Part shown: positions 4,784-22,389 of the stretch, one piece after another
Layout: each line of letters begins with the position of its first letter
Numbering within the stretch: the first letter of the stretch is position 1
Assembly (NCBI GenBank): GCA_029861845.1
Contig: JAOTYM010000006.1
Span: 2,710 to 66,709, forward strand
Length of the DNA stretch: 64,000 nt
Direction of reading: 5' to 3'
Source: Gammaproteobacteria bacterium
GTDB lineage: Bacteria > Pseudomonadota > Gammaproteobacteria > Acidiferrobacterales > SPGG2
The notes under the pieces: generated by a model
What the model was told of the DNA's origin: nothing
The model's database searches: none
The model's input: only the letters and a program-made list of their open reading frames with translations
Translations under genes and position numbers: made by a program

Positions 4784-4815
4784 ATGTTACAACCTGTGCG
4801 TCACTAACAAGTCAA
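4784..4815 (-). promoter_or_regulatory. MerR-type promoter/operator B (upstream of the YHS operon)
   Basis: Minus strand reads TTGACT-TGTTAGTGACGCACAGGTTG-TAACAT. It has a -35, a 20-nt spacer containing the dyad ACTTGT-N9-ACAGGT (4792..4812), and a -10. The geometry is the same as sites A, C and D. Confidence 0.7.
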
Positions 4816-4882: not shown

Positions 4883-7345
4883 TTACAGCGGCACCCCGCG
4901 CAGCCGCAAGGCATTGGTAATCACCGATACTGAACTAAGACTCATCGCCGCCGCTGCGATCATGGGGGAAAGCAATAACCCGAAAAACGGGTAGAGCACG
5001 CCGGCGGCGACCGGGACGCCGAGCGAGTTGTAAATGAATGCGAAGAACAAGTTCTGCCGAATATTGCGCATGGTCGCACGACTCAAGCGCCGTGCGCGCA
5101 CGATGCCACGTAGATCGCCCTTGACGAGCGTGACGCCGGCGCTTTCCATCGCGACGTCGGTACCGGTGCCCATCGCGATGCCCACATGCGACTGGGCCAG
5201 TGCCGGCGCATCATTGATGCCATCACCGGCCATGGCGACCGTGCGTCCCTCAGATTGAAGTTTCTTCACGATCGCGGCTTTCTGGTCCGGCAGCACTTCG
5301 GCCTCGACGCGATCGATACCAAGCCTGGACGCGACCGCCTCGGCGGTCGTGCGGCTGTCACCAGTCAGCATCACGACCTGGACACCTTCTTTATGCAGGT
5401 CCCGGATGGCCTCCGGTGTGGAATCCTTGATCGGATCGGCCACACCAATCAGCCCGGCGGCCTGGCCGTCGATGGCTACAAACATGACTGTCTGCCCTTC
5501 CCCACGGCCGGCCTCCGCGATTTTTGGCAAATCGGCCGGATCGATGCGCAGGCTTTCCAGCAATTTGACATTACCCAGCGCCACGCGTCGCCCCTCGACC
5601 TTGCCGGTCACACCCTTGCCGGTAACGGACTCAAAATTGTCGGTCGGTGACAGGGTAACCTCCCTGTCCTGTGCGCCGCGCACGATCGCTTCGGCCAGCG
5701 GGTGTTCGCTGCCGCGTTCCAGGCTGGCGCCCAGGCCCAGAATGTCATGTTCTTGAAAGCCGTTCACGGTCACGATCGACACCAGCGAGGGTTTCCCCTC
5801 GGTCAGGGTGCCGGTCTTGTCCACGACCAGCGTATCTACCTTGCGCAGGATTTCCAGTGCCTCGGCATTCTTGATCAATACCCCCATCATGGCGCCCTTG
5901 CCGGTGCCGACCATGATCGACATGGGGGTGGCTAGCCCCAGCGCGCAGGGACAGGCAATAATCAGTACCGCCACGGCGTTGATCACCGCATAGGCCAAGG
6001 CTGGTGCCGGTCCCCAGTTCCACCAGACGAAGAAGGTGATGATGGCAATCACGACCACAGCCGGTACAAAGTAACTGGCTACCACGTCCACCAGCTTCTG
6101 GATCGGTGCACGCGAGCGCTGTGCCTCGGCCACCATCTGCACGATCTGTGACAGCAGCGTATCTGCACCGACCCGTTCAGCGCGCATCAGCAGGCTGCCG
6201 GTACCATTGACGGTCGCGCCGATCAGCCGTTCACCCGCAGTTTTTTCGACGGGAATGGGCTCACCAGTCACCATGGATTCGTCGACCGAACTACTGCCGT
6301 CGAGTACTGCGCCATCCACAGGGACCTTTTCCCCCGGCCGCACCCGCAGGGTATCCCCCGGTTTGACCTGTTCCAGGGGGATATCTTCTTCGGTGCCATT
6401 ATCCCGGACGATACGCGCGGTGTTGGGTGCCAACCCCAACAACATTTTGATGGCGGCATTGGTGCGGCTGCGCGCGCGCAGCTCCAAAACCTGACCAAGC
6501 AGCACCAGTGCGGTGATGACGGCAGCCGCCTCAAAGTACACAGGTATAACTCCCATCTCGTTCTGCACCGACGCTGGAAAAATACCAGGGAACGTGGTTC
6601 CGATCACACTATAGGTCCAGGCAATACCAACCCCTATTCCAATCAGGGTGAACATATTAAGGTGGCGCGAGACCACCGATTGCCAACCGCGCACGAAAAA
6701 CGGCCACCCCCCCCATAAGACGACCGGCGTCGCCAACAGCAATTCGAACCACTGGCGCGAGCGTGGATGAATGATCTCTGCGACGGTCTCGGGCCAGAAC
6801 TCGGCCACCATAGCGCTGAAGAACACCGGGATGGCGAGGATGGCACTGACCCAGAAGCGCTGCGACATATCATCGAGTTCACTGGTGTCCTCTTCGACCT
6901 CTACCGTGCGCGGCTCCAGGGCCATGCCGCATTTCGGACACGCCCCCGGTTTGTCGCTCACCACCTCGGGGTGCATAGGGCATGTGTATTCCGTCTTGGT
7001 CGCGGTCACCGGAACGCCCATCGGCTCCAACGCCATGCCGCACTTGGGACAGCTGCCCGGCCCCTGTTGCTCCACCTCGGGATCCATGGGGCAGGTATAC
7101 ATCCCTCCCTGTGCTGATGAGCCGCTGTCGGCCGGTGCCTCGAGATCCGGGGTCCCTAGATAGTTATCCGGCGCCGCGCGAAATTTGTGCAGGCAGTGTT
7201 GGCTACAGAATCGGTACGTTGTAGCGGCATGAGAGTGTTGGTGCGGAGAATCCTTGGATACATCCATACCGCACACGAGATCCTTTTCGATCGCCTCGTC
7301 GACATGCTGGCCCGATACTTTCTTCAACTTATGCTTGGGTTTCAT
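4883..7345 (-). CDS. copA: Cu(I)/Ag(I)-translocating P1B-1-type ATPase
   Basis: Motifs present: 'DKTGTLT', '[10 protein letters not shown]' (CPC), 'FIYNSLGVP' (YN), '[12 protein letters not shown]' (MxxSS), 'GDGINDAP'. The N-terminus has a YHS motif plus two 'YTCPMxPEV..[13 protein letters not shown]' repeats. The track ORF starts at TTG 7405, but that lies 2 nt from the predicted -10 (7407..7412), so I prefer ATG 7345 (MKPKHKLKK...). Confidence 0.93.
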
Positions 7346-7406: not shown

Positions 7407-7438
7407 AGTATAAAACCTGTACCCTGCTAACAGGTCAA
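7407..7438 (-). promoter_or_regulatory. MerR-type promoter/operator A (upstream of copA)
   Basis: Minus strand reads TTGACC-TGTTAGCAGGGTACAGGTTT-TATACT. The dyad ACCTGT-N9-ACAGGT at 7415..7435 is perfect. The 20-nt spacer (19 if the -10 is read as TTATAC) is typical of MerR/CueR/ZntR-activated promoters. Confidence 0.8.
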
Positions 7439-8583: not shown

Positions 8584-8973
8584 TTACTGCTTCATCATTT
8601 CGTCCATGCGTTTACGCATCTGCTCCATCTGATCCTGCGTGTCGGCGTCCATCATCATGCCCGACATCTTGTCCATCATAGCGCCCATTTCCTGCATGCG
8701 CTCGGCCATCTGTTTTTGCATGTCGGGGCTCATGCCTCCCTGCATCATCCGCTCGGACATCTTTTCCATCTGACCGGCCATGTCATGCATCATGCCGGAA
8801 GACTGCTGGGCGCCGGGGCCCATACCGCCTTTGCCACCCATCATCCCTGAACCCATCTGGCCGCCGGACCCCATGCCTTGTTCCTTTCCCGTGTGTGCAT
8901 AAAGCGGCGCGGCGAGCGCCATGCCGATCACTGCTATGGCAGCCCGGCGCGTGCGAGACATTGACTGTTTCAT
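8584..8973 (-). CDS. Methionine-rich secreted protein with Tat-like signal (putative periplasmic Cu(I)/Ag(I) binder)
   Basis: MKQSMSRTRRAAIAVIGMALAAPLYAHTGKEQ..., then a mature part with 28 Met in about 103 residues (my count) in M-x-x-M/MM motifs. A strong SD (GAAGGAGCAAAAG) precedes the ATG. MerR-type promoter C lies upstream. Confidence 0.75.
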   Translation of the reverse strand: MKQSMSRTRRAAIAVIGMALAAPLYAHTGKEQGMGSGGQMGSGMMGGKGGMGPGAQQSSGMMHDMAGQMEKMSERMMQGGMSPDMQKQMAERMQEMGAMMDKMSGMMMDADTQDQMEQMRKRMDEMMKQ

Positions 8974-9124: not shown

Positions 9125-9156
9125 ATGCTACAACCTGTGCGCAACTATCAGGTCAA
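9125..9156 (-). promoter_or_regulatory. MerR-type promoter/operator C (upstream of the Met-rich / SHOCT / NfeD genes)
   Basis: Minus strand reads TTGACC-TGATAGTTGCGCACAGGTTG-TAGCAT. The dyad is at 9133..9153 with one mismatch. The geometry is identical to sites A, B and D. Confidence 0.7.
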
Positions 9157-9957: not shown

Positions 9958-10392
9958 TTATTGCATACATCTCATATGTTGAGGCCCTTGACAAGCAATA
10001 ATCCTTGCGCTCCATAGGCTCTTTATATACGCAACGATATCGTAAACCTCTTTTTCAGAAATAACTTCCTTGAAGGCAGGCATGCGCTTCGTTCTGCGCA
10101 GACCTTCGAAAATCATGTTTGCTAGCTGTTCATCAGTATGGTGCCAGGCATGCGATGTTTCATTTAAAGGCATGGCCGTAAAGTATCCTGGCTTACGTAT
10201 ACTCCACGGAATCGGCGTTTCCCCTACCCCATCTTTCTGATGACAAACTTGACAATGCTTCTCATAAAGCCCTTTACCAAGCACGACGGCACCGGGGTCC
10301 GGCGTTTTCCCCGTTTCAGCACCAGCGATTCCACTGAAAATAATGAGCGCTAAAAAGTTAACGACCAAAATATTTCTTCGTATTGTAATCAT
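9958..10392 (-). CDS. Monoheme c-type cytochrome (periplasmic)
   Basis: Signal peptide and a single 'CQVCH' heme motif. It shares 'PLNETSHAWHHTD' and 'DIVAYIKSLW' with the cytochrome paralogues at 17070, 17599 and 22390. Confidence 0.8.
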   Translation of the reverse strand: MITIRRNILVVNFLALIIFSGIAGAETGKTPDPGAVVLGKGLYEKHCQVCHQKDGVGETPIPWSIRKPGYFTAMPLNETSHAWHHTDEQLANMIFEGLRRTKRMPAFKEVISEKEVYDIVAYIKSLWSARIIACQGPQHMRCMQ

Positions 10393-10450
10393 CTCAACAT
10401 CCCGAAATATCTTAACATCGCAAGTATAGCGCTCAAGCGGTATCAGCGTT

Positions 10451-10861
10451 TCACTCGACCCCAGCCGCGCGTTGTTTCTGGCGCACGTAGGCTATGATAT
10501 GACCCGCATCCTCTGGCGTGAGCCTGTCGATGGGCGTCATGTTTCCGAAGTTCCAATGGTGCTGCCGCACACCGTGTCTGACCGCGAGGTGAAAAGACAG
10601 ATCAGCATGGTGGCCAGGCCGGTAAATCTTGTGTACCAGTGGTGGTCCTTCGCGTGTTCCCCGGACGCCCTCGCCATGACAGCGGGCGCAGTTGGCCTGA
10701 AATAGATCCCCGCCTCGTTTCGCGTCGGCGACGAAGTTGGGACTCGGCAGACGGAGATTGGCGCGCATCTGTTCCGGTTCAGGCCGTTCGCAGCTGGCCA
10801 AGATCGGTAACGTAATGAAGGCCATAGCAAGCCATGGCGATATGTTCTTTCTTGCGTTCAC
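10451..10861 (-). CDS. Monoheme c-type cytochrome, probable lipoprotein
   Basis: Heme motif 'CARCHG'. The track ORF extends to 10921. I prefer GTG 10861, which gives (M)NARKNISPWLAMAFITLPILASC, a lipoprotein-type signal, and avoids overlap with the Rieske reading frame. Confidence 0.75.
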   Translation of the reverse strand: MNARKNISPWLAMAFITLPILASCERPEPEQMRANLRLPSPNFVADAKRGGDLFQANCARCHGEGVRGTREGPPLVHKIYRPGHHADLSFHLAVRHGVRQHHWNFGNMTPIDRLTPEDAGHIIAYVRQKQRAAGVE

Positions 10862-10910
10862 CTTGTATCTTTGTGGCCTGAGATGGGTTTGCGGTGGCGT
10901 TGGACTGTGC

Positions 10911-11502
10911 TCAGATCTCATCGGCGCCGATTCCTATCACTGTGTCTTTCATGTATCGATGAGTAGGCACGACTAAATTGGTTGGTGCCGGGACATTCTT
11001 GAATACGCGCCCCGCCAAGTCAAACTTAGAGCCATGACACGGGCAGAAATAGCCGCCGGGCCAATCCCTGATCGACACCCGCGCTTGCGCCGGAAGCAAG
11101 TTTGGCCAGAGGCACGCACCCGAGATGCGTACAGATGCCGACGACCACGAGCACTTCCGGCCGGATCGATCGGTAAAGGTTCTTGGCATACGACGGCTGC
11201 TGACTTTCCACCTCCGAGCTCGGGTCGACCAGCAGTGGCGTGTTGCGCTCGAGCTGTTCGAGCATCGCCGGTGTGCGCCGCAAGATCCATACCGGTATGC
11301 CCCGCCATTCAACGGTAAGCATCTGCGCCGCTTCGAGCTTGCTGATATCGACATTAACGGAACCACCCGCGGCCAATGCCCGCGCACTGGGTTTCATACT
11401 TAAGATAAAGGGCGTCGAGCTAAGGGCAGCGCCGATGCCACCCAGAACGGTGGTGATCGTCAGCAGCCACCGTTTTTTTGCATCGACAGGGCCACTAGCC
11501 AC
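10911..11502 (-). pseudogene. petA: Rieske [2Fe-2S] protein, PetA-like, interrupted by a +1/-1 frameshift near 11090..11105
   Basis: ORF 11026..11502 carries the PetA-like N-terminus through cluster box I, 'VVGICTHLGCVP'. Box II 'GGYFCPCHGSKFDLAGRVFKNVPAPTNLVVP' is in a different frame (ORF 10911..11387). Removing one nucleotide near 11097 joins them with normal box spacing. Confidence 0.8.
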
Positions 11503-11525
11503 GATACCACCTACTAGTTGCGTTA

Positions 11526-12119
11526 TCAGGCCTTGAGATCTTTCGACGCCGGCCGCCTGGGTCGGCCCAGTTGTGGTGCGATGCCACAGAATCCCTGGGG
11601 CTCTACCCCCAGTGCGGCGTTGAACTTGCTGGAAAGATTCTGGAACGCGATGACACCGGTAAGCTCTATGATGGCATCATCATCGAAGTGCCGGCGAAGC
11701 TGTTCAAAGTGCTTCGCGGTTGGTTGACCGTCTGAATAGGTGATCATCTCGGTGTAGGCCAATGCAATTTTTTCGCGCTCGCTAAACAGCGGGCTTGCCT
11801 CGAAATTGGCAAGCTCTGCCAACTTGGCCGGATCAACACCCCGCTTAAGCACGGTCGCAGAATTGATATCGACGCAGAACGGACACCAGTTGATCTGGGA
11901 CACCCGTATGGTGACCAGCGATCGCAGCGGCGGTTCGATCGGCGAAGAGCGGCGATCCAAAGCTCCATAAAGCAGCGCTAGGCTGATGAATACTTTGGGC
12001 GTACGGCCCCAGAGACGAGCAGGCTCGAGCACCGCACCATAACGACGTCTCTGGTTCCAGAAGAACAGGCGCACATACCACGGGAAATGGTGCTTTGGTG
12101 GCGTAGTGATAGCAGCCAT
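11526..12119 (-). CDS. Carboxymuconolactone decarboxylase / AhpD-like family protein
   Basis: Internal Met at 12119 (MAAITTPPKHHFPWYVRLFF...) avoids overlap with the upstream gene. The 'INWCPFCVDIN' CxxC core is typical of AhpD-like proteins. Confidence 0.7.
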   Translation of the reverse strand: MAAITTPPKHHFPWYVRLFFWNQRRRYGAVLEPARLWGRTPKVFISLALLYGALDRRSSPIEPPLRSLVTIRVSQINWCPFCVDINSATVLKRGVDPAKLAELANFEASPLFSEREKIALAYTEMITYSDGQPTAKHFEQLRRHFDDDAIIELTGVIAFQNLSSKFNAALGVEPQGFCGIAPQLGRPRRPASKDLKA

Positions 12120-12141
12120 CACTGGTGTCGCGCGACGCCGA

Positions 12142-13206
12142 CTAACGACCCGCCACCGCCATCTGGTGCCCCTCACCACGGACGGGAATCTTGCCCACTA
12201 CCGCTAAGCGTTTCTGGTCCACTACCCAGATCAGCGGCTCCTTGCGGCTCGAAACGTACACCTTACCCGTACCCGGGATTGCGGCAACATGATAAGACGC
12301 CGGGCTGAGATCGAGACTGCGAGTCCGACCGCTAACAAGATCAATCTCGATTAGCTTGTTGTCCTTCTTGACCGCAACGAGCAGCTTCTTGCCGTCATCG
12401 GACAAGTCAACGCCATGGGGATCGTTGCCGACGCTATACGTCTTTACCACCTTGCCCTGGTCGCGCGAGATCACCGAAACGGTACCATCACCGATATTGT
12501 TTACGTAAATCGTAAGCTCGTCCGCCGATAGCACCATATGTTCGGGCGCCGGTCCCGCCAAGATATTGCGGGTCACGATCCAGTGATCCGTATCAATCTC
12601 ACTGATCGTATTGTTGCCAGCGTTGCTGACATAGATGCGTTTGCCGTCTTTCGTGACTACCGCGTAGTTGGGCACTGGGCCGGTTGGCACTACCTTGGCG
12701 ACTTTGTAATTCGAAAGATCGATCGCGCTGATCCCGCCGGCCGTAGTATGTGTCGAGATCGCGTAACGTCCATCCGGTGTAACCAGATTGTGATGAACGG
12801 CTCCTTTCACGTCGACACGGCGAACTACGCGTCTGTCTTGCGTCTCAACAATAGCAACATGGCTCATCCCCACGCCCGATTGCGAAGCGGCCGCAGTCGG
12901 CATGTTGTGATGCAGGCTGTGCTCCTCCTCGGACATGCCAGCTGGCTTCGGTGGCAGCGCGGCTTGATCCGGGCTCACCTCCCGATTGCTGCCCGCGACC
13001 ACGTACTTGCCATCGGGCGTCGCGGCGAGGCCGTGCGGATTGACGATATCGCCGACCGTATCTATGACCTTGTCATCTGCCGCATCCACGATGACGATTT
13101 CGTTTGCCGTACCTAAGGGGATATATACTGTGGGTGCGGCTGACGTGACCGAGGCCATACCGACGGTAGCAGCGCTAACTAGAAGAATACCTACCAGCTT
13201 GTTCAA
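12142..13206 (-). CDS. Secreted YVTN-type seven-bladed beta-propeller protein
   Basis: Signal peptide (MNKLVGILLVSAATVGMASVTSA). Seven repeats of the pattern 'V.VID....KV...I.VG..P.G...S.DGK..YV'. A Met/His-rich insertion follows blade 1. Confidence 0.8.
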   Translation of the reverse strand: MNKLVGILLVSAATVGMASVTSAAPTVYIPLGTANEIVIVDAADDKVIDTVGDIVNPHGLAATPDGKYVVAGSNREVSPDQAALPPKPAGMSEEEHSLHHNMPTAAASQSGVGMSHVAIVETQDRRVVRRVDVKGAVHHNLVTPDGRYAISTHTTAGGISAIDLSNYKVAKVVPTGPVPNYAVVTKDGKRIYVSNAGNNTISEIDTDHWIVTRNILAGPAPEHMVLSADELTIYVNNIGDGTVSVISRDQGKVVKTYSVGNDPHGVDLSDDGKKLLVAVKKDNKLIEIDLVSGRTRSLDLSPASYHVAAIPGTGKVYVSSRKEPLIWVVDQKRLAVVGKIPVRGEGHQMAVAGR

Positions 13207-13317
13207 GTTCCTCTCCTTTCTTAAGGTGCGTTCTCTTCAAGGACTGCGTTCTTTAGTCTTAGCGGACGATAAGGTTATACCCCGCTTCGGTCTGGTCTAC
13301 GGATCACTAACCGCCCA

Positions 13318-13983
13318 TCAGCCGCCCTGGCCCATGCCCGGAGACATCATTCCGTGTCCGCCCCTGCCATGGCCGCGCTTCAACTGTTTGAGCTCTTGGC
13401 GCTGTTCCTTGGTTAGCACCGCGTCAACACGATTGTGGGTATCAATCTTGCTCTCAATCATCTGCCGTCTGAGATTAAAGATATTCCCATACACCGCACC
13501 GATTCTTTTCGCATCTGGTTTATCGGCGGCGAAGAGCTCACGCAGCTTGCTGGATTCGTCCATGATCTTGCCCATGGTGTCCCAGTTCGTCCTGCGTAGC
13601 TGATCCTGAAGCTTGTGCATGCTGGCACGCTGTTCTTTTGTAAGGTCAAGCATTTGTATGCGGCCCATGCCCATGCCGCCCATCATTCCAGGACTATCCA
13701 TCATCCCCATCATGCCTGGTCCCATACCCATCATGCCCATGTGACCCATGCCACCCATATGGCCCGCCATCCCGGATTCGCCCATCATGCCCTTGTGACC
13801 CATGCCACCCATATGGCCCGCCATCCCGGATTCGCCCATCATGCCCATGTGGCCCATGCCGTAGCCGGGGGTACCACCTCGCATCATCGGACCGCCGCCA
13901 TGGGCTAGCGCGACTGACGCCCCAATGCCAACGACAGCCGCGATCAATACACCCATCATCAAACCAGTTACAGTTCTATTCAT
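13318..13983 (-). CDS. Spy/CpxP/ZraP-family periplasmic protein with a Met/His/Gly-rich N-terminal extension
   Basis: Signal peptide, then 'GMGHMGMMGESGMAGHMGGMGH...' repeats. Two LTxxQ motifs follow ('LDLTKEQRASM', 'AVLTKEQRQEL'), characteristic of the family. A strong SD (GGAAGGAGAT) is present. Confidence 0.8.
   Translation of the reverse strand: MNRTVTGLMMGVLIAAVVGIGASVALAHGGGPMMRGGTPGYGMGHMGMMGESGMAGHMGGMGHKGMMGESGMAGHMGGMGHMGMMGMGPGMMGMMDSPGMMGGMGMGRIQMLDLTKEQRASMHKLQDQLRRTNWDTMGKIMDESSKLRELFAADKPDAKRIGAVYGNIFNLRRQMIESKIDTHNRVDAVLTKEQRQELKQLKRGHGRGGHGMMSPGMGQGG
13741..13848. repeat. Tandem 54-bp direct duplication inside the Spy/CpxP-like gene
   Basis: 13741..13794 and 13795..13848 are identical except for one base at the unit end (tt vs at). 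They encode the duplicated 'GMMGESGMAGHMGGMGH(K/M)' block. Confidence 0.9.
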
Positions 13984-14153
13984 CGAATATCTCCTTCCTT
14001 ACGCAAAGCTATTGGTTAATGACAAAAAAATACATTTCTCGCAAACCCACAATCTTAGTTTTCCAACTGTCAGCAAGGTTCATCGAGTTTCTTGATGCAG
14101 ATCAAGGCTCGTGCATGTATTCCCGTTCTGGTGCGTCGCCCGCGGCGTCTCGC

Positions 14154-14600
14154 TCATACACGGATTGGCCTGACGGAGAACCAACGCATTGTCATGACCG
14201 TGAGACTCGGGACCACCAGCCACTGCAGTAGCGGTGACAGGCCAATACCGCCAACCAGTGGCATCGCCGCGGCATAAGACCAGGCGCCAAGCTGGTAGAC
14301 GTTGTGCCACTCGCTGAATACGGTATAGGCAAGCCCCGCGGTAACCATTAGTAGCCCGCCCAACCACGGCGTCTGCAGCGGCCAATCCAGGCGTTTGAGC
14401 ACTGTAGCCGTTCCCAAGAACACGCTGGTGGCAATCAGTACATCGCCCACCGTGCAGTGAAACACGTACGCTACGATTCGCTGTCTGCTGTCGTCACTCC
14501 ACAGGCCATACAACGGCAGATGCGCAAACTCCCACACGAGGTGGAACACGAAAGCGAGACTTGCCCACCTCGCCATCCATTTCACCGCTATTATCATCAT
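14154..14600 (-). CDS. Polytopic membrane protein of unknown function (first gene after promoter D)
   Basis: 148 aa with 4-5 hydrophobic helices (e.g. WASLAFVFHLVWEFAHLPLYGLW, GGLLMVTAGLAYTVF). I recognise no family. The start codon lies only about 14 nt downstream of the predicted transcription start. Confidence 0.6.
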   Translation of the reverse strand: MMIIAVKWMARWASLAFVFHLVWEFAHLPLYGLWSDDSRQRIVAYVFHCTVGDVLIATSVFLGTATVLKRLDWPLQTPWLGGLLMVTAGLAYTVFSEWHNVYQLGAWSYAAAMPLVGGIGLSPLLQWLVVPSLTVMTMRWFSVRPIRV

Positions 14601-14620
14601 TTTCGTCGCTGGTTAGATAC

Positions 14621-14652
14621 AGTCTAAGACCTGCGTGTAGCTTACAGGTCAA
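14621..14652 (-). promoter_or_regulatory. MerR-type promoter/operator D (its -35 overlaps the merR-family stop codon)
   Basis: Minus strand reads TTGACC-TGTAAGCTACACGCAGGTCT-TAGACT. The dyad is at 14629..14649 with one mismatch. The -35 hexamer (14647..14652) contains the TGA stop (14649..14651) of the regulator gene. Confidence 0.7.
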
Positions 14653-15071
14653 GCGTCATAGCGACGGATGCCTGTTGACTCGATGAGGTGACATATCGAT
14701 TCCCTATCGGGCACGCGGTCGGGCATCTTATCCCACTGCCTTAAGGCGTCTTCCATACGGTTCTGCAACTGCAACAGTTCCTCCAGCTTCTGCCGGTTCT
14801 CCTCGACGTGCCGCTGCAAGATATCCCTGACTCTTCGACACGGGGACTTGCCCTGGGCGCTGGTGTCGAGAATCTGTGCGATCTCCTCCAGCGTACAGCC
14901 GAGGCTCTGCGCCTGACGGATGAAACTAAGCCGCGATATGTCAGAACGTGAAAATAGCTTATAGCCATTGTCCGGATGGCGCGCCGGGCTGAGTAACCCG
15001 ATCCGGCTGTAATAGCGGACCACATGCGGTGCCACTCGCCCTTGCCTTGAAAGTTCACTTACCGTCATCAT
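14649..15071 (-). CDS. MerR-family metal-responsive transcriptional regulator
   Basis: MMTVSELSRQGRVAPHVVRYYSRIGLLSPARHPDNGYKLFS... is the MerR N-terminal wHTH, followed by a coiled-coil helix. GGAGG lies 7 nt upstream of ATG 15071. It is the only MerR-family gene in the window. Confidence 0.88.
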   Translation of the reverse strand: MMTVSELSRQGRVAPHVVRYYSRIGLLSPARHPDNGYKLFSRSDISRLSFIRQAQSLGCTLEEIAQILDTSAQGKSPCRRVRDILQRHVEENRQKLEELLQLQNRMEDALRQWDKMPDRVPDRESICHLIESTGIRRYDA

Positions 15072-15206
15072 TTTGCTGCCTCCTAAAAGATATAGTTGCG
15101 CTGTGCGCCCACGTCGCACGAACTCGCTAACAAGAGAACGGCCCGGGCGCGTGCCATGGCTTCGCCTAGCGACTCGCCGCTAGGTTTCCGCCAAAGTTGA
15201 ACGGCC

Positions 15207-15647
15207 TCAGATAAGAAGCTGCTTGAAACGCAGATACAGCGGGAGCGATGAGGTTGGAACGTGATAGGCTTGCGGCCACTCCCGAATTGGTTCGGCAATC
15301 TGCTGGTCCCAGACTAACGCGGCGGCCACGAGGCTGTCCGGTTGCGGGGAGCGATACTTGAGAACAACCGGCGCCGCTTTCATAAGATCGTGACGCATAC
15401 CGGTCCAGTAGCAACAATAAGACAACCCGTCTTCTGATGCTGCCTCGCCGACGATTTCTCGAGCGTAATCGGCGGACGTCAAACCAACCCCCACCTGCGG
15501 CTGAGCCAATCCGGCGGCAAACAAGTCGCGGCAGGGCTGCAGCGTCACCAGCAACAACAGCGAGAGCGAACCAACTAATAGCCAGGATGTATATCGGCGC
15601 CGACACGTTGGTTGCCAAGCTAATACTTTTCGGCGGCTGCTATTCAT
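15207..15647 (-). CDS. Hypothetical protein with N-terminal TM/signal segment
   Basis: 146 aa with a hydrophobic segment (WLLVGSLSLLLLVTL). I recognise no family. I chose it over the overlapping alternative frame 15166..15618 because of the TM segment and tight spacing to the flanking genes. Weak call. Confidence 0.4.
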   Translation of the reverse strand: MNSSRRKVLAWQPTCRRRYTSWLLVGSLSLLLLVTLQPCRDLFAAGLAQPQVGVGLTSADYAREIVGEAASEDGLSYCCYWTGMRHDLMKAAPVVLKYRSPQPDSLVAAALVWDQQIAEPIREWPQAYHVPTSSLPLYLRFKQLLI

Positions 15648-15662
15648 CGAGCGTAACGAGCT

Positions 15663-16052
15663 TTAATTGAGGCTATCACGTACACGTTCTAGACGCTTGC
15701 GCACTTCCATACCTAATTCGGCGATCTCCTCGCGATCGACCAAGCCTAACACCGCTGCAGGATCCATAAATGCGACGGTTATCTTACCGTCTTCCTCTTC
15801 CCTGACCACAACATTGCAAGGCAATAGCAATCCGATATCAGGATCGGCGGTCAGGGCCTTATGCGCAAGCGACGGATTGCAGGCTCCGAGGATTCGGTAT
15901 GGCTGTCCTTCGATATCCAGTTTTTCTTTCATGGTCTTCTGCACATCGATATCGGTGAGTACACCGAAGCCCTCATCTTTCAGTGCCTCGGTCACTCGTA
16001 TAACAGCTTTATCGAAGCTTTCCGTCAGTTGAATATTAAATCCATACATCAT
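15663..16052 (-). CDS. DUF302 domain protein
   Basis: 129 aa. '[17 protein letters not shown]...YRILGACNP' and 'LLPCNVVV' match the DUF302 pattern as I recall it. Confidence 0.8.
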
Positions 16053-16217
16053 TCTCTCCCAGCGGGACTAAGCGCGTTCAGTTTGTTTTGACCTTGCAAA
16101 ATTTATATCTATCTCGCCAGCTTAGACATTGATGTAGGTCAAGGTTCCGTGTTTCGAATCAAGCCCTCACCAAATCAACGTAGGGGCTTACAAGAATCCA
16201 CGCTTCGAAATATCTAC

Positions 16218-16985
16218 CTAATTAAGCTGGCTGGGTATCGGTTTGCTCATGCCCAAGCGCCCCACCCCGGGTAGCTTGATAGCCGGGCGCAAGACATCGA
16301 TGCCGAAACTCATACCCAGCAGATTGAGCTCGAGTCCTTCCTGGCGGGCAGCGAGGACACCGAGCATACCGTACCACGACAGCTGGATCCCGGTGCCGCT
16401 CGGCGCACTCTCCACCAAGCTGCCGTTAGTCAGGAAATCCTTGCCGATGGCGGTGGTTGGCAGATCTAGGGCGAGCTCGGGCACCTCACGCCCGACATGG
16501 GCGGTGAAGGTATTGCTGTTGGGGCCGGGCCAGAGGACGTACTCCCACTCGTAGGGGTAGTTACGTACCGCCTGTTCGATGCGCGGGATAGCGCGCGTAG
16601 CGGCGTCGCCACGCAGCTCGGCGATAACCACTGGCGCATTGCCAAACCAGGAACGATCCGGGGTGTCGGGCGCTGAGATGACCACCGGTAGATTGTGCCA
16701 CTTGCGCCACCCCACGACCTGGTGCACGGTGTAGCCGTCAGCCCCTTCCGGTTTGGTTGCGATCCAGGTATGTACGGCGAAAATACCACGCCAGTTTATG
16801 GCGCGCGCCGCATAAGCCTGTACCACTGCCTCACGAGTCGTGTCTGGGTCGGGTGCAATACCAGTCGGGGAACGGTCGGCCGTGCGCCAATCCTGTCCCA
16901 GGTTGATCTTGCCACAAGCAACCATCAACAACGGGCCTGCCAACAGCACGCCCAAAAACATACCGATACGTTTGAACAATTTCAT
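16218..16985 (-). CDS. DUF3750-like lipoprotein
   Basis: Internal Met at 16985 (MKLFKRIGMFLGVLLAGPLLMVACGK...) has a lipobox. 'FAVHTWIATKPEGADGYTVHQVVGW' and 'WPGPNSNTF' resemble DUF3750 (from memory). Confidence 0.7.
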   Translation of the reverse strand: MKLFKRIGMFLGVLLAGPLLMVACGKINLGQDWRTADRSPTGIAPDPDTTREAVVQAYAARAINWRGIFAVHTWIATKPEGADGYTVHQVVGWRKWHNLPVVISAPDTPDRSWFGNAPVVIAELRGDAATRAIPRIEQAVRNYPYEWEYVLWPGPNSNTFTAHVGREVPELALDLPTTAIGKDFLTNGSLVESAPSGTGIQLSWYGMLGVLAARQEGLELNLLGMSFGIDVLRPAIKLPGVGRLGMSKPIPSQLN

Positions 16986-16986
16986 A

Positions 16987-17051
16987 GTGCTGGCCGAATA
17001 ATACACGATTTGCTAATACGCTCCCTTATCGTGAGTAATGGCGGCCAGCAC
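16987..17051. repeat. Perfect 10-bp inverted repeat (GTGCTGGCCG ... CGGCCAGCAC) with a 45-nt loop between two cistrons
   Basis: The arms lie at 16987..16996 and 17042..17051. The repeat sits between the cytochrome c stop (17070) and the DUF3750 start codon (16985). Confidence 0.85.
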
Positions 17052-17069
17052 TGCCAGCCTTACCAAATC

Positions 17070-17582
17070 CTACTTTTGTGTGATCTGATTTCCTCGGACC
17101 TCTGCATCTATCTGCGCCCACGTGGCGTATTTCTCGTCCGACCAAAGGGACTGAAACCAGGCGATGATCGCTTCCATGTCCTCATCGGACAATTTATCAC
17201 CCCACGCCGGCATGCCGCTTCCTAGTTGTGCGGAGCCGTGCATGATGATGCGTTTAAGAACGGCAGTTGGGTGATACCAAGTGTGCCCAGTCCCGTTAAG
17301 CGGTGGAGCCGGATTCTTAGTCACCGGACCTGTCTTGCTCCATAGAGGACCTCCCTCAGCTCGGGGGCCATGGCACGATGCACAGTTCTCGGCAAAAAGT
17401 TTCGCGCCGCGCGACACCTTTGCAGAGCCCCGAGAGCGGGGGACCGACGGTCGCGCAGCCGCAGGCTGTTGTTGCCAGCCCAATTCCTGCGGCTTGGGCA
17501 TCTCGGAGGCGGTCGGACTTGTGTCGTCGCTGCAGGCAATTAAGAAGAGCCCCGTGATGAGCAGTAAGCTTATTGTTTTCAC
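17070..17582 (-). CDS. Monoheme c-type cytochrome lipoprotein (paralogue 1 of a tandem pair)
   Basis: MKTISLLLITGLFLIACSDD has a lipobox. Other motifs: 'CASCHG', 'PPLNGTGHTWYHP', 'LSDEDMEAIIAWFQSLW'. Confidence 0.82.
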   Translation of the reverse strand: MKTISLLLITGLFLIACSDDTSPTASEMPKPQELGWQQQPAAARPSVPRSRGSAKVSRGAKLFAENCASCHGPRAEGGPLWSKTGPVTKNPAPPLNGTGHTWYHPTAVLKRIIMHGSAQLGSGMPAWGDKLSDEDMEAIIAWFQSLWSDEKYATWAQIDAEVRGNQITQK

Positions 17583-17598
17583 ATACAGCTCCTCATTG

Positions 17599-18105
17599 CT
17601 ACTGCTTGGTCTGGTTGTTACTCACTTCCGCATCCATCCGTGCCCAGGTATCGTAGATTTCGTCCGGCCAAAGGGACTGAAACCAGGCGATGATCGCTTC
17701 CATGTCTTCATCGGACAATTTACCAGCGTGGGGTGGCATTTTGCCGCCTATGGCAATGGTTCCTTCCCTGATAGTGCGTTTTAGAACAGGAGTAGGATGA
17801 TGCCAGGTGTGGGCAGTGCCGTTGAGCGGCGGCGGCGGATATTTGCCATCGGCGCCGGGTGTGCTCCATTGCGGTGTGCCTTGGGCTTGGGAGCCATGAC
17901 ATGACGCGCAGTTTTGCGTAAAAAGCTTTCTGCCGCGCATATCCTTAGCGAAATCGCGTTCGCGGGCAACGGGTGGTTGCGCCGTTTGAATCTTCGCCGT
18001 GCTCTGGCTGTTCGGCATCGTCGTGGGTGAGCCTTGTGGGCTCGGATCGTCACTGCAGGCGGTTAGTAACAGACCTGTTATCAGCAAAAGACTTGTCGTT
18101 TTCAT
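17599..18105 (-). CDS. Monoheme c-type cytochrome lipoprotein (paralogue 2 of a tandem pair)
   Basis: Internal Met at 18105 (MKTTSLLLITGLLLTACSDD). Other motifs: 'CASCHG', 'PPLNGTAHTWHHP', 'LSDEDMEAIIAWFQSLW'. Confidence 0.82.
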   Translation of the reverse strand: MKTTSLLLITGLLLTACSDDPSPQGSPTTMPNSQSTAKIQTAQPPVARERDFAKDMRGRKLFTQNCASCHGSQAQGTPQWSTPGADGKYPPPPLNGTAHTWHHPTPVLKRTIREGTIAIGGKMPPHAGKLSDEDMEAIIAWFQSLWPDEIYDTWARMDAEVSNNQTKQ

Positions 18106-18195
18106 AGGTGAACCTGAATGGGCCGATTGACACGGTAGCAGTAGCCGCGGCACCAAACCGAAGCAGAACTAAAGCGGGATTATCCCTAGTGGCAG

Positions 18196-18549
18196 TCAGG
18201 CACGAGCTTTAGGAGGTCTAGTCGGCAACGATTCCGCGAGCAGCGGTTTGAGCATAGGTGCCGGGGATCCCGGCTGGGCGGAAGAGCATGTAGTGGTGGG
18301 GCAACTGCCCGGGGTTACAGCAACACAATGGGCACAGGACGTGCCGCACTGTCCACAATCCATACCGTGTTCGAAACCGGAGCTCTGTTTGACCGCGTTG
18401 TCATTAGCATTATAGGTATAGCCAGCGACGGCATATCGGTGCACGTTGTGGTAGGTCGCGTCCCCCGAGTGAACTGCAAACACCGATGTTCCCAGAACCA
18501 AGGCGACACTGAAGAGGAAGACTAATATTGGTTCCGAATTCACGGTCAT
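18196..18549 (-). CDS. Hypothetical secreted Cys/His-rich protein
   Basis: 117 aa with an N-terminal hydrophobic signal (ILVFLFSVALVLGTSVFA). A 'CGQCGTSCAHC' cluster is followed by 'GSCPTTTC' and a Pro-rich tail. The SD is weak and I recognise no family. Confidence 0.45.
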   Translation of the reverse strand: MTVNSEPILVFLFSVALVLGTSVFAVHSGDATYHNVHRYAVAGYTYNANDNAVKQSSGFEHGMDCGQCGTSCAHCVAVTPGSCPTTTCSSAQPGSPAPMLKPLLAESLPTRPPKARA

Positions 18550-18806
18550 GAGAATCGAACCTTACGAGGTAATAAGTTCCGTGTCATGTCAAACGGGAAT
18601 CAAGGGTAGCGCCGAATTTGTGACCCTTTTCTGCGAGCCAAACTCAACCATATTGACCCCCAGGGAGCGGTTAGGTTCAGCGCAGCCGGTTATTTGAGGT
18701 CTCCTATAGGCCCAGCAAACTTAGCGAAACGGGAATGCACCACCAGTCGCGGTATTGTGGGGGTGGGTAAAGCAACTAGTAATTAAGAGTGCTTAGCGGC
18801 CTTTGC

Positions 18807-19508
18807 CTACAGTCGCCATACCAAAGCAGCGCGTACTTGCCGTTCGACGCCGTGAAGCGCCTCGTCCTTATCTCCGACGATCGCCATGCTGCCGTTGTTG
18901 GTGGGCACGAGAATGCCCTCAGACCGGTCTCCAGACATGACCTTCGGCCCCGCGATGTGTTTCTCTGGCAGCAACAGTACGACCACGGGGCCCTTATGCC
19001 CCTCCAAGACCAGGTGCGCGCCCCCGTATTCTGAAAAGTCACAGAGGCTTACGTGCCTAATTTTGCCGATTTCACCCTTGAGCTCAGCGCCCACGGTATC
19101 GAGCACGCTCATCAGCTTTTGGTCTGAGACATCTTGCCGTTGTACGAGTGAATCCCACTCCCCATCAAGGTGAGCCATTACTGCTCGGTGGAAAGGGGTT
19201 GTTGATATCACGGTAAACAGGCCGCCCGCGAGACCCAGCGTTAACAACAGACTGGCTGCTATCGCATACCTGCGTGACTTATGCTTGTTTGGAAGTTGGC
19301 CGTTCCGAAGGGACTGTCTCAGAATGATCCGTGAGGCTAGATTCTCGGGGACATCAACGCGCACCGCCTCTACTAGCGTCTTATCAACTTGGCTCATGTG
19401 TGCCGCAAATTCGGCACAAGCTGCACATTCGCGCTTGTGCCGCACAAATTCACTGTCCTGATTTCCAGGCCCAGCAAGACAGCGACGACGAAATTCCAGA
19501 CAGTTCAT
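18807..19508 (-). CDS. DUF3379-type anti-sigma factor (zf-HC2-like N-terminus, one TM)
   Basis: 'MNCLEFRRRCLAGPG...HKRECAACAEFA' is a zinc-finger anti-sigma N-terminus. A TM helix follows (YAIAASLLLTLGLAGGLFTVI), then a periplasmic domain. No sigma-factor ORF lies upstream. Confidence 0.72.
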   Translation of the reverse strand: MNCLEFRRRCLAGPGNQDSEFVRHKRECAACAEFAAHMSQVDKTLVEAVRVDVPENLASRIILRQSLRNGQLPNKHKSRRYAIAASLLLTLGLAGGLFTVISTTPFHRAVMAHLDGEWDSLVQRQDVSDQKLMSVLDTVGAELKGEIGKIRHVSLCDFSEYGGAHLVLEGHKGPVVVLLLPEKHIAGPKVMSGDRSEGILVPTNNGSMAIVGDKDEALHGVERQVRAALVWRL

Positions 19509-19699
19509 GCACTAATCCTAGCAGTCAAAAACCTGCCAAAATTCGGACCCCGAGACCAGTTTTGGCACGTCTCATGCCTTTAATAGACCGGGAAAATGGC
19601 TATACATTACACGCTCCGGACCAGGCATTTTTAGCCTCCCCCCAACCTTCGACACCGCCCCGATATCGGCGTAACAACACCGCCGACCGGCATGAATTC

Positions 19700-20148
19700 T
19701 TGCTAAATAATACAAGCCTGTTTTTAGCCGGGCTTTTCAACGCCTCCTGGCTTCAGCGCGGCGTTCGCTTCCAGGCCAACGTCATGGGTGGTCGCCCCTT
19801 AATCGCTTATGTGCTAGGCGTGGCGTTCACCTTTGGTTGGACGCCGTGCATCGGGCCGGTGCTGGGGGCGATTCTGGCCGTGAGCACGGTTTCGCCGGCT
19901 GTTTCACGCGGCGTCGCCTCACTTGGCGTCTACTCACTCGGGCTCGGCGCACCGTTCCTGCTCGCGGCGCTGTTCAGGGGTGCCTTTATGGGTTGCCTGA
20001 AAGCGATGGGCTACCTCGCGGCCGCCCGTTGCAGATCGGCGCCGGTGTGGTTCTGGTCACCATGGGTATCGCCATGATCACCGGTCAGCTCTCGGTATTC
20101 GCGTATTGGTTGCTGAAAACGTTTCCTGGGCTGGCTACTATTGGATAG
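19700..20148 (+). pseudogene. ccdA: Cytochrome c biogenesis/thiol-disulfide transporter CcdA (DsbD-family) remnant: N-terminal half missing and frameshifted near 20012..20025
   Basis: Frame 2 reads 'LIAYVLGVAFTFGWTPCIGPVLGAILAVS...YSLGLGAPFLLAALFRGAFMGCLKAM'. The expected C-terminus 'IGAGVVLVTMGIAMITGQLSVFAYWLLKTFPGLATIG' continues in frame 1. No first-Cys TM region is present in any frame upstream. Confidence 0.72.
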
Positions 20149-20245
20149 TCGCGTGGAGTTTTTCCGAATGGCGGTTTCGCGCTTGCAAACACCGTAACTG
20201 GCGACGTCATGGATTTCTGTGATATTAGGGATCAAACGGATCGCT

Positions 20246-20758: not shown

Positions 20759-21044
20759 GGGTGCTTTTCTGAGTGATCACTTCGGAACAACGCTCATAAT
20801 ATTTTCTTTACTCTTTATTTTCTCACTCGCGGCCGCGCTGCGCGTGGCTAGCAGGTCTCGGAGAAAATCACGTTAAGACGCCTCGAAAGCAGTGAGGGTA
20901 AATTCAAGGCTAAAAGCGTGCTTCGACACAACCGGTGCTTAGTACTCCTTGCAGCCTGGATCGTAGGTCAAAAGTGACCAACTTCTTTACACGACCAGGC
21001 GAGATCGAATTGATACCAAGAGCCGGTGCGCCTAGCTATTGTTC

Positions 21045-21356: not shown

Positions 21357-21629
21357 TTCGTCAAAGGCATCAGATCGGATCAGCGCACGCTTGATGGGTT
21401 GATACCGCTAGATAACTCGATTAAAACCCTCAAACGATATGGAGGATATGGTACGGTATGCCGTAGGAACGGTCACACTTGATATACATTATTGGCCCCA
21501 TCGTCGTTTTTGGGCGCACTGGGGGGTCGCCGCTGACCGAAACTTCCTGCTATAGTTAGGGTCGAAACTACCATTCCGGCACCCATTTTCGGCGTTCCTT
21601 GTAGAATCCATCAATTAGGACCTAACTAC

Positions 21630-22367: not shown

Positions 22368-22389
22368 GACTTCCCAATCATCCAAGCAA

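Follow-up and report, generated by a model that had tools for sequence, protein, structure and literature searches.

A putative copper-regulon unit with a histidine-ring propeller, cytochromes c and a Rieske gene in an uncultured gammaproteobacterium

What might a PetA-type Rieske gene do in a row of genes for a secreted propeller, monohaem cytochromes c and a CxxC protein, behind a MerR-type promoter and with neither a cytochrome b nor a cytochrome c1 gene beside it? The question is raised by a locus in a 64,000-nt stretch of contig JAOTYM010000006.1 (here called the window, whose positions serve as coordinates throughout), in which a MerR-family regulator and seven further genes follow one another on the minus strand between positions 15071 and 9958. 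A preliminary description of this DNA had proposed that the seven form a periplasmic electron-transfer module under a metal sensor, acting on a metal or on metal-damaged envelope components. As judged from shared operator sequences, the unit belongs to a copper regulon, and the evidence points to the propeller, along with cytochrome c, as its putative conserved core. The reading that we prefer, though tentatively, is that of a copper-homeostasis island unit in which the propeller captures Cu(I) expelled by a nearby ATPase and oxidizes it without O2, passing the electrons to cytochrome c.

Gene order and content

The gene content was established from the open reading frame (ORF) listing and from Pfam and NCBIfam family scans, and the features of the unit, in the order in which the strand is read, are as follows.

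14649–15071, minus strand: merR, a MerR-family metal-type regulator of 140 aa (Pfam MerR_1, MerR-DNA-bind and MerR)
14621–14652, minus strand, read from 14652 to 14621: 'promoter D', a MerR-type long-spacer promoter, from the sequence
14154–14600, minus strand: four-helix membrane protein of 148 aa, without a Pfam or NCBIfam family
14091–14106, minus strand: palindrome CTTGATCTGCATCAAG, in a conserved 170-nt gap between the membrane-protein gene and the Spy-like gene
13318–13983, minus strand: LTXXQ protein of the Spy/CpxP/ZraP type, rich in Met, Gly and His, with a signal peptide (Pfam LTXXQ)
12142–13206, minus strand: secreted seven-bladed YVTN propeller of 354 aa (TIGR02276, AlphaFold model)
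11526–12119, minus strand: CMD/AhpD-like protein with a CxxC motif, WCPFC (Pfam CMD)
10911–11502, minus strand: PetA-type Rieske gene with a +1 frameshift (TIGR01416 matches in two frames)
11061–11070, minus strand: site of a 1-base insertion, CAGGGATTGG, in the Rieske gene (comparison with the intact P0121 and P0391)
10451–10921, minus strand: monohaem class I cytochrome c with CARCH and the lipobox ILASC (Pfam Cytochrom_C and Cytochrome_CBB3)
9958–10392, minus strand: second secreted monohaem cytochrome c, with CQVCH (family scan, sequence)

All eight genes, from merR to the second cytochrome c, are present in the order first given for them, although the set of seven behind the regulator is not intact in that the Rieske gene, while correctly placed, is interrupted by the 1-base insertion. 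The term 'periplasmic' applies to the propeller and the Spy-like protein, both of which are secreted, but probably not to the AhpD-like protein. A Pfam scan of every ORF of at least 300 aa finds no cytochrome b or c1 gene in the window, as had been claimed, and with petB and petC absent the Rieske gene does stand alone there. On the gene-bearing strand the CxxCH motif occurs in five ORFs alone, those for small cytochromes of 144–185 aa, at 9958–22905.

An operator shared with a copper ATPase

Promoter D consists of the hexamer TTGACC, a spacer of 19 or 20 nt with the perfect dyad GACCTG-N11-CAGGTC, and the hexamer TAGACT (in full TTGACC-TGTAAGCTACACGCAGGTC(T)-TAGACT); it lies directly after the merR stop codon, which its −35 hexamer overlaps. 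The claim that a MerR-type promoter precedes the unit is thereby borne out. The strict dyad is unique in the window, where its chance expectation is 0.02; the promoter is conserved in two relatives (loci L086 and L087), and the same overlap of −35 hexamer and merR stop codon recurs in the distant loci L007, L056 and L074, whose MerR proteins are 48–64 % identical. When the operator motif was scanned as TTGACCTG-N11-CAGGT with at most one mismatch, the window proved to hold three exact copies and one copy with a single mismatch, all on one strand. Besides promoter D, these copies and the ATPase gene behind one of them are the following.

9125–9156, minus strand: second copy of the MerR-type promoter, TTGACCTGATAGTTGCGCACAGGTTGTAGCAT, upstream of genes for a Met-rich 129-aa protein, SHOCT and NfeD
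7407–7438, minus strand: third promoter copy, TTGACCTGTTAGCAGGGTACAGGTTTTATACT, directly upstream of the Cu ATPase gene
4883–7345, minus strand: CopA-type P1B-1 Cu(I) ATPase with N-terminal YHS and HMBD domains (Pfam families, motifs)
4792–4815, minus strand: fourth operator copy, with one mismatch, TTGACTTGTTAGTGACGCACAGGT, upstream of the YHS/DUF5676/DUF2933/ICMT genes

Since the architecture of promoter D recurs three more times on the same strand, the four promoters appear to be commanded by one MerR regulator, and since the ATPase gene sits behind one of the operator copies the likely signal is Cu(I)/Ag(I). The ATPase carries the P1B-1 signature as read from its motifs, with CPC in transmembrane helix (TM) 4, YN in TM5 and MxxSS in TM6 (MSLSSVSV), from which transport of Cu(I) is predicted. 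The arrangement upstream of its gene, a dyad operator within a promoter with a 19–20 bp spacer, is CueR-like in sequence.

The same motif was counted in 80 species-level genome loci fetched with the propeller profile, with shuffled sequences as the control. It occurs 28 times, in 17 of the 80 loci, against 1.4 +/- 1.0 occurrences in the shuffles, and most of the sites stand ahead of a gene for a propeller, a cytochrome c or a Rieske protein. At eight of the 28 sites the first recognized gene downstream is that of the propeller, six of them within 170 nt of its start; two sites are directly upstream of a Rieske gene (L005 and L007), and others precede CMD–propeller, cytochrome c–propeller and porin–cytochrome c–cytochrome c–propeller operons. 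Because its operator is shared with that of a CopA-type ATPase and recurs in related loci, we assign the unit, on this comparative evidence, to a copper regulon. That the unit is under a metal sensor, and that the metal is copper, is likewise well founded by comparison, the operator standing ahead of the Cu(I) ATPase gene here and of propeller, cytochrome c and Rieske genes elsewhere; the comparative regulon supports induction by copper without proving it.

A recurrent operon behind this operator, seen in L056, L074 and L084, encodes a 418-aa protein, one or two cytochromes c and the propeller, and in L074 a merR gene lies between the cytochrome c genes and the propeller. The 418-aa protein has a coiled-coil N-terminus and a weak match to Porin_4 that falls below the cut-off, which hints at an outer-membrane component in some lineages.

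The regulator has the helix–turn–helix and dimerization helix of its family, with Pfam MerR_1, MerR-DNA-bind and MerR all above their cut-offs. A Cys occupies the position of CueR S77 and ZntR C79, and the C-terminal motif C-H-L-I-E-S, which recurs in homologues, supplies the equivalent of CueR C120 as the single Cys of the metal loop, with a His next to it; an equivalent of CueR C112 is absent. The CueR equivalog TIGR02044 scores 65.1 against a cut-off of 147.4, and all of the NCBIfam metal-sensor equivalogs fall below their cut-offs.

The 170-nt gap ahead of the Spy-like gene (13984–14153) is 95 % identical to the corresponding gap in relatives whose propeller is about 90 % identical, and with its palindrome it may be a second promoter or a regulatory site, perhaps of an envelope-stress type. 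The gap also contains a GAACCTT-N16-CTAAGA stretch that resembles a promoter of the extracytoplasmic function (ECF)/sigma-E type.

A propeller with a ring of invariant histidines

The propeller protein is made up of a Sec-type signal peptide, with no twin arginine, and the propeller domain alone. It matches the YVTN-repeat model TIGR02276 with 58 bits against a cut-off of 27.85; its AlphaFold model (mean pLDDT 89.7) has seven four-stranded blades, and the best PDB match is 1l0q (profile E 1.7e-57, TM 0.78). Conservation was read at first from an alignment of 30 sequences and then from one of 195 sequences that extends down to about 45 % identity. In the larger alignment H58, H138, H139, H223, H264 and H306 are conserved in 100 % of the sequences, H347 in 99.5 % and H153 in 94 %, and N180, Y181, E222, Y305 and Q348 are conserved in at least 95 %. 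Taken blade by blade the ring reads H58, then H138 with H139, N180, H223, H264, H306 and H347, to which H153 is added. In the model these residues open the innermost strand (strand A) of successive blades; as six blades contribute His, one of them a doublet, there are seven ring histidines in all, and by propeller topology they would encircle one opening of the central channel. In 1l0q and other ordinary YVTN propellers the ring positions are taken by M, Q, L, K, S or A.

On the same face as the ring lies an insert rich in Met and His, which forms the B–C loop of blade 1 (residues 74–113, 40 residues; ..PKPAGMSEEEHSLHH..), is disordered in part and contains the motif PKPxGMSExEHxxHH. Longer homologues, of 400–526 aa, have two to four copies of the insert; tandem copies of the form K-P-K-G-M-S-E-A-D-H-K-K-H-H were noted in P0056, P0092, P0039, P0044, P0059 and P0096, which reach 526 aa. 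The copies on the Ruegeria pomeroyi megaplasmid and on a Halomonas plasmid retain all of the ring and lid histidines. From this pattern the propeller would be expected to hold a multinuclear copper site.

The public names of the protein, 'YncE family protein' and 'lactonase family protein', are generic. It scores 77.8 against a cut-off of 400 with the YncE model NF052280 and 109.6 against 287.3 with TIGR03866 (PQQ-associated propeller), and we found no curated family in NCBIfam or Pfam that covers it, nor anything relevant in searchable papers on YVTN, YncE, lactonase or propeller proteins with copper. The family is nevertheless large by count: a protein search returned more than 1,300 homologues, and at least 311 of the first 600 pattern matches listed from the species-level genome collection encode relatives of the propeller.

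The ring invites comparison with NosZ, a seven-bladed propeller that likewise has seven histidines at the starts of its innermost strands, one blade with a doublet, and a third blade without His. The CuZ ligands of NosZ (1qni), which we take to be H79 and H80, H128, none, H270, H325, H376 and H437 in blade order, give the pattern HH/H/–/H/H/H/H, which is paralleled here by H/HH/–/H/H/H/H, the doublet being on blade 2 in our propeller and on blade 1 in NosZ. Local motifs agree, with KNPHGLNTSPDGKY in NosZ and NPHGLAATPDGKY here. An hhalign comparison of the propeller family with 1qni gives a weak alignment (probability 30 %) in which blades 4–6 are in register to within one or two residues. NosZ is periplasmic and depends on c-type cytochromes for its electrons, and our propeller is periplasmic by its Sec signal and has cytochromes c encoded beside it. 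The gene of the propeller is regulated with copper efflux, unlike that of NosZ, and neither the Pfam scan for cupredoxin and COX2 families nor the model reveals a CuA or cupredoxin domain. Lactonase-type NosZ (L-NosZ), reportedly described by He et al. (Nature, 2025) as a clade III nitrous-oxide reductase, is represented by the model NF052460, with which the propeller scores 76.1 bits (E 2e-21) against a cut-off of 700; with the NosZ model TIGR04246 it scores 20.6 against 625. The nos accessory genes nosDFY, nosL and nosR are absent from the island and from the recurrent neighbour clusters of the 80 loci. Clade III nosZ loci, too, are reported to be without nos accessory genes, and to have genes for cytochromes and transporters beside them (PMC13477213).

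A copper propeller that works with a monohaem cytochrome c has a precedent in thiocyanate dehydrogenase (TcDH), a seven-bladed propeller in which hub histidines hold a trinuclear copper centre, from which electrons pass to a monohaem cytochrome c, and whose gene lies among copper-handling genes (PMC9456337, PMC6504805). TcDH (PDB 5f75/5oex, with cytochrome c552 as its partner) is a protein of about 470–550 aa that is exported by Tat and has ligands that include Lys, Glu and Asp, in contrast to the 354-aa, Sec-exported propeller described here. The PDB profile match between the two (E about 1e-3) covers one blade and does not place the propeller in the TcDH family, and no genes of the thiocyanate pathway or for cyanase are present at the unit. 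A different precedent is AztD, a periplasmic propeller that acts as a zinc chaperone (PDB 6cmk; PMC6689063). Like our protein it is a secreted propeller that is encoded with a metal transporter, and it binds metal through histidines, as is predicted for ours, but it serves uptake via an ABC system and has neither a hub ring of seven histidines nor cytochrome partners; its match to the propeller (E 0.004) is marginal.

Neighbours of the propeller in other genomes

The propeller loci come from Alpha-, Beta- and Gammaproteobacteria, with hosts that include Kiloniellaceae, Hyphomicrobiales, Thiobacillus, Sulfuriferula, Sideroxydans, Sedimenticola and Acidiferrobacterales; among cultured carriers are Ruegeria pomeroyi DSS-3, Halomonas sp. 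KO116, Sedimenticola selenatireducens DSM 17993 and Lutibaculum baratangense. The numbers of the 80 loci at which each kind of gene was found within 5 kb of the propeller are as follows.

Cu ATPase: 51
Small monohaem cytochromes c: 45, with 28 genes at a distance of 400 nt or less, nearly all of them co-directional
SHOCT: 36
Multicopper oxidase: 30
ICMT: 26
DUF2933: 16
DUF5676: 16
CopB: 14
Rieske: 13–16
CopG/DUF411: 12
Spy-like (Gly/Met-rich): 12
MerR: 11–13
AhpD-like: 9
148-aa membrane protein: 1

The seven genes are not a conserved unit. The set holds together just in close relatives, of which L086 and L087 (propeller 90 % identical) have genes for MerR, the membrane and Spy-like proteins, the propeller and a cytochrome c as well as an intact Rieske gene, but lack the AhpD-like gene; elsewhere it is sub-modules that recur, in which the propeller is paired with cytochrome c or with the ATPase, and the Rieske protein with cytochrome c. 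On this comparison the set is a mosaic of envelope modules that is conserved at short range alone. A proposal that the cytochrome c neighbours make up one orthologous family was tried and discarded, the apparent family being a single-linkage union of at least three subtypes that share just the CxxCH motif and an axial Met.

Two replicons of cultured marine bacteria illustrate the range. On the megaplasmid of R. pomeroyi DSS-3 (L089, NC_006569, 401951–409636) the propeller gene (SPO_RS21680, protein WP_011242141.1) is directly upstream of a Cu ATPase gene, and further upstream is a block of cytochrome c, multicopper oxidase, cytochrome c, DsbA and VTT genes. On the plasmid of Halomonas sp. KO116 (L090/L004) the propeller (KO116_RS21460) adjoins a CcdA gene; a Cu ATPase gene lies at a distance of a few kb, as does a stand-alone petA, which is flanked by nhaA and a DUF3141 gene.

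Copper islands that are under MerR control and include a CopA-type ATPase are well known as a frame. Alteromonas and other marine Gammaproteobacteria carry a copper-induced genomic-island cluster of the order merR-copA-cupredoxin-DUF2933-ICMT (PMC8478169). In the alphaproteobacterial loci the order is ATPase-propeller-DUF2933-ICMT, so that the propeller fills the slot of the cupredoxin in the Alteromonas cluster, in the description of which no propeller, YncE or Rieske protein appears (PMC8478169). The Alteromonas cluster and the CopR/CopA/CopI/CopJ system of Rubrivivax gelatinosus (PMC4600104) have in common with the present island a MerR-type regulator, a P1B-1 ATPase, DUF2933 and ICMT, as well as a periplasmic metal-binding protein of a redox type beside the ATPase, and all are island-borne and copper-linked. 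What differs in the window and in the 80 loci is that a histidine-ring propeller replaces or joins the cupredoxin, and that cytochromes c and Rieske, Spy-like and AhpD-like proteins are added. The combination of the propeller with cytochrome c neighbours and copper-regulated PetA paralogues is undescribed in the curated families and the searchable literature, where we also found no system with the composition of the unit, in agreement with what had been supposed.

A Rieske protein outside petABC

Matches of TIGR01416 to the Rieske gene are split between two frames: the CTHLGC box lies in ORF 11026–11502 (model positions 3–128, 131.3 bits) and the CPCHGS box in ORF 10911–11387 (positions 131–176, 68.1 bits), the cut-off being 97.4. 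The extra base was located in CAGGGATTGG by comparison with the intact P0121 (84 % identity, ..GVDQDWPGGYFCPCHGS) and P0391 (about 97 %, ..GVDQGWPGGYFCPCHGS). As the truncated product of 158 aa is on record from two contigs (that of the window and one from JGI of 70.6 kb) and the intact 196-aa allele from three, the lesion is either recent or an assembly error. The JGI contig with the intact P0391 (23.3 kb) has a split propeller instead, in pieces of 100 and 222 aa.

Once repaired, the Rieske protein is a normal PetA with a membrane anchor, both cluster boxes and a VPAPTNL loop, and shares 64 % identity with P0193, the PetA encoded in the petABC operon of Sulfuricaulis limicola. Of the twin-arginine motif K-K-R is left; in the chloroplast Rieske protein a KR motif serves for export by Tat. 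The setting of the gene is another matter. The PetA of a bc1 complex has petB and petC as neighbours, as P0193 does, whereas the gene next to the Rieske gene of the window encodes a monohaem cytochrome c, and in relatives a copper-type MerR operator accompanies it. An intact Rieske gene is followed by a cytochrome c gene in L087, where the two overlap, and in L092, where the cytochrome c gene is 85 nt downstream, and never by one for cytochrome b. A petA on a Legionella 'plasmid', considered as an example of a stand-alone Rieske gene, was rejected once the record proved to be chromosome-like and the gene to be part of a housekeeping petABC operon.

A rough neighbour-joining tree does not unite the island-borne Rieske proteins in a single clade. 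The alphaproteobacterial island copies form a clade of their own, the clade of the window nests among PetA proteins of the Acidiferrobacterales type, and the copy on the Halomonas plasmid groups with gammaproteobacterial housekeeping PetA. Grouping by host class is what would be expected of a paralogue that must fit the cytochrome b of its host, and it suggests that the island Rieske protein is a copper-induced paralogue, and so an alternative form, of the bc1 subunit of the host; it may also relay electrons between the propeller and cytochrome c. The repeated recruitment of PetA paralogues under a copper sensor further suggests the exposed Rieske cluster of the bc1 complex as a candidate target of copper. 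Searchable papers on alternative Rieske proteins with copper held nothing relevant.

The first cytochrome c of the unit has Met128 as its axial ligand and, from its lipobox, is probably a lipoprotein. The Rieske frame ends in a stop codon that overlaps the start codon of this cytochrome gene, which suggests translational coupling. The second cytochrome c is just 23 % identical to the first.

A possible oxygen-independent route for Cu(I) oxidation

Under the reading that we favour, the MerR regulator encoded just upstream would recognize ACCTG-N11-CAGGT in the four long-spacer promoters and, in copper excess, would activate the ATPase gene and the unit. The ATPase would expel Cu(I) into the periplasm, where the propeller would capture it with its Met/His lid and oxidize it at a copper site in the hub. 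Electrons would leave by way of the adjacent monohaem cytochromes c, perhaps through the Rieske centre, to the respiratory chain, and it is on this account that the process would be independent of O2. The Rieske protein might either relay electrons in this chain or replace a Rieske subunit damaged by copper, while copper buffering or a chaperone function would fall to the Met-rich Spy-like protein and thiol repair in the cytoplasm to the AhpD-like CxxC protein, both of which would limit collateral damage. An electron chain acting on copper, which is one form of the activity first suggested for the unit, is plausible.

The role so proposed, detoxification of periplasmic Cu(I) by oxidation, is that of the CueO/PcoA-type oxidases, and CueO-type oxidases also share with the propeller MerR-type co-regulation with CopA and a Met-rich insert of variable length near the metal site, which in the oxidases binds copper. 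CueO and PcoA are built from three cupredoxin domains and have O2 as their acceptor, in contrast to the unrelated fold of the propeller and its proposed acceptor, cytochrome c. The propeller is not a simple replacement for multicopper oxidases, as these are also present in 30 of the 80 loci.

There is a real chance that the propeller represents a new class of copper enzyme. The full form of that proposal is one that we consider rather doubtful: that it is the catalytic subunit of a new periplasmic class with a NosZ/TcDH-like site but no CuA domain, which works with cytochromes c (and in some lineages a PetA-derived Rieske protein) and feeds the electrons of Cu(I) oxidation into the respiratory chain. 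If true, sediment and marine Proteobacteria would have an O2-independent counterpart of CueO, which a CueR-like MerR regulon would turn on. In the periplasm no copper species is more toxic than Cu(I), and the known oxidases CueO, PcoA and CutO need O2, so that how anaerobes and microaerobes handle Cu(I) is still a question. One partial answer is CopI of Rubrivivax, a periplasmic copper protein that is most important when O2 drops (PMC4600104). An O2-independent route would fit a propeller that is widespread, is linked to Cu ATPases, has a NosZ-like His ring and has cytochromes c as neighbours, and the family may also show the origin of compact copper propellers such as L-NosZ.

Several points weigh against Cu(I) oxidation by a propeller–cytochrome chain. 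The Rieske gene is broken here, so that in the genome as assembled the proposed chain is without a Rieske centre, and the AhpD-like protein, having no signal peptide, is probably cytoplasmic and not periplasmic. The cytochrome c neighbours are a mixture of small class I cytochromes rather than one orthologous partner, and cytochromes c are common in these islands, possibly for other reasons. The placement of the His ring at the hub rests on propeller topology. As for NosZ, the hhalign probability is just the 30 % given above, PDB profile matches to NosZ and TcDH are marginal (E 1e-3 to 1e-5), and a Foldseek search of the PDB with the propeller model returns generic propellers, with NosZ ranked 34th. 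The regulator lacks the second Cys of CueR, on account of which its effector is not certain. As a second promoter may lie in the 170-nt gap ahead of the Spy-like gene, co-transcription of the whole set of seven from promoter D is only putative. Copper binding, redox activity, electron transfer, the substrate and induction by copper are all inferred.

Of the other readings the one that survives best, though we think it somewhat unlikely, is that the propeller is a non-catalytic periplasmic acceptor or chaperone of copper, and that the cytochromes c and the Rieske protein are copper-induced spare parts for respiration and not its partners. Such a copper sponge would be analogous to AztD for zinc, itself a propeller metallochaperone that appears among the weak PDB matches (PMC6689063), and to CopI/CopC-type proteins for copper; it would suit the position of the propeller in the cupredoxin slot beside the ATPase, and the copy number of the Met/His-rich lid varies as it would in a metal sponge. 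Spare parts would be useful in that assembly of c-type cytochromes in the periplasm is a target of copper (PMC4600104). The host-class grouping of the non-monophyletic island Rieske proteins and the 64 % identity of the window copy to a petABC subunit fit a protein that docks onto the host cytochrome b, and the Rieske genes of L005 and L007 have an operator copy of their own. A sponge would hardly need, however, seven to eight invariant histidines together with invariant N180, Y181, E222, Y305 and Q348 across 45 % identity, a pattern that looks catalytic, and the 28 closely placed and nearly all co-directional cytochrome c genes exceed what mere co-residence in an island would give.

It is improbable, in our judgement, that the genes have no functional coupling and that the chain is an accident of gene order in a lineage-specific pile-up of independent copper-island cargo. 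The full set does occur in close relatives alone, its members recur at anything from 1 to 51 of the 80 loci, the AhpD-like gene is present or absent between relatives that are 90 % identical, each module has its own operator copy in other genomes, and the Rieske gene is broken by a frameshift here; but the adjacency of propeller and cytochrome c, and that of Rieske and cytochrome c, recur in three proteobacterial classes, and the overlap of the Rieske stop codon with the cytochrome c start would be odd among unrelated cargo.

Most improbable of all is a copper enzyme with a non-metal substrate (a CuA-less relative of NosZ, or a TcDH-like enzyme for a sulfur compound) that exchanges electrons with cytochrome c and whose cofactor the copper regulon secures, for although the seven-His pattern resembles the CuZ site, the L-NosZ model gives its weak match, clade III nosZ loci reportedly have a comparable setting (PMC13477213), TcDH loci hold copper-transport genes (PMC6504805) and sulfur oxidation or denitrification is found in many hosts (Thiobacillus, Sedimenticola, Sulfuriferula, Acidiferrobacterales), a CuA or cupredoxin domain is missing, other YVTN models score as well as that of L-NosZ with its 76 bits against 700, nosD, nosF, nosY, nosL and nosR are missing from the recurrent neighbours, those neighbours are detoxification genes (multicopper oxidase, CopB, CopG, efflux ATPase and copper-type MerR), the signal is Sec where TcDH has Tat, and expression under copper excess alone, which follows from control by an efflux-type copper sensor, would be odd for a respiratory or catabolic enzyme.

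Other proteins of the unit

The gene closest to promoter D encodes the 148-aa membrane protein, which belongs to an unnamed family of 1263 representative clusters in the protein library. Its alignment has W23, E24, C49, G52, D53, E97, M113 and P114 as invariant residues and H48 in at least 90 % of the sequences; the invariant C-x-x-G-D motif is thus usually preceded by His. The AlphaFold model has four helices (pLDDT 95.4), and there are no matches in Pfam, NCBIfam or PDB sequences, with a best E of 0.22 among PDB folds. We considered whether it might be a small haem-b cytochrome in place of cytochrome b and rejected this, as a single conserved His (H48) does not make a di-haem cytochrome b and the protein has no known fold or family.

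The Spy-like protein meets PF07813 (LTXXQ) with 34.9 bits against a cut-off of 24.3, and scores far below the cut-offs of the NCBIfam Spy, ZraP and CpxP models. With its signal peptide and a long N-terminal extension rich in Met, Gly and His, it is plausibly a copper buffer or chaperone. The AhpD-like protein scores 46.4 bits against 23 with PF02627 (CMD) and 31 against 27.8 with TIGR00778; its 127 bits with a YciW-related NCBIfam model are below the cut-off of 310.

The island and the rest of the window

A copper island, at roughly 900–23,000 of the window, surrounds the unit. In addition to the ATPase it holds YHS, DUF5676, DUF2933, ICMT, SHOCT and NfeD genes, a second Met-rich protein, DUF302, DUF3750 and DUF3379 genes, a DsbC-like protein and three more small cytochromes c. 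Those with coordinates of their own are listed here.

8584–8973, minus strand: Met-rich protein of 129 aa (gene table), with SHOCT and NfeD beside it
17070–17582 and 17599–18156: two tandem monohaem cytochromes c
21630–22367, plus strand: DsbC-like thioredoxin
22390–22905: another cytochrome c

The upstream continuation of the island (15207–23000) encodes, besides the cytochromes and the thioredoxin, a familyless 146-aa protein, DUF302, DUF3750, a familyless 117-aa protein, DUF3379, a GGACT/AIG2-like protein and DUF6122, and L086 and L087 share most of the gene order of this segment.

The rest of the window contains Calvin-cycle and glycolysis genes, a ChpA/PilJ chemosensory cluster, and pyrimidine and glutathione genes, from which it follows that the locus is chromosomal. 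When plasmid DNA was searched with the whole region, the matches were confined to short stretches of petA and cytochrome c genes. The window matches a metagenome contig of 131 kb (ENA ERZ28013244). The closest named relatives of the proteins of the window are in metagenome-assembled genomes of Acidiferrobacterales, and the host is an uncultured gammaproteobacterium related to that order. Three long minus-strand ORFs at 50810–52102, 53654–54892 and 57250–58437 (430, 412 and 395 aa), for which Pfam gives no match at E <= 1e-5, adjoin genes for a pyridoxal-dependent decarboxylase and a methyltransferase. A gene at 1915–3060, on the margin of the copper island, encodes a DegP/HtrA-type protease with Trypsin_2 and PDZ domains, and a protease that resembles its product adjoins petABC in S. 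limicola (L091).

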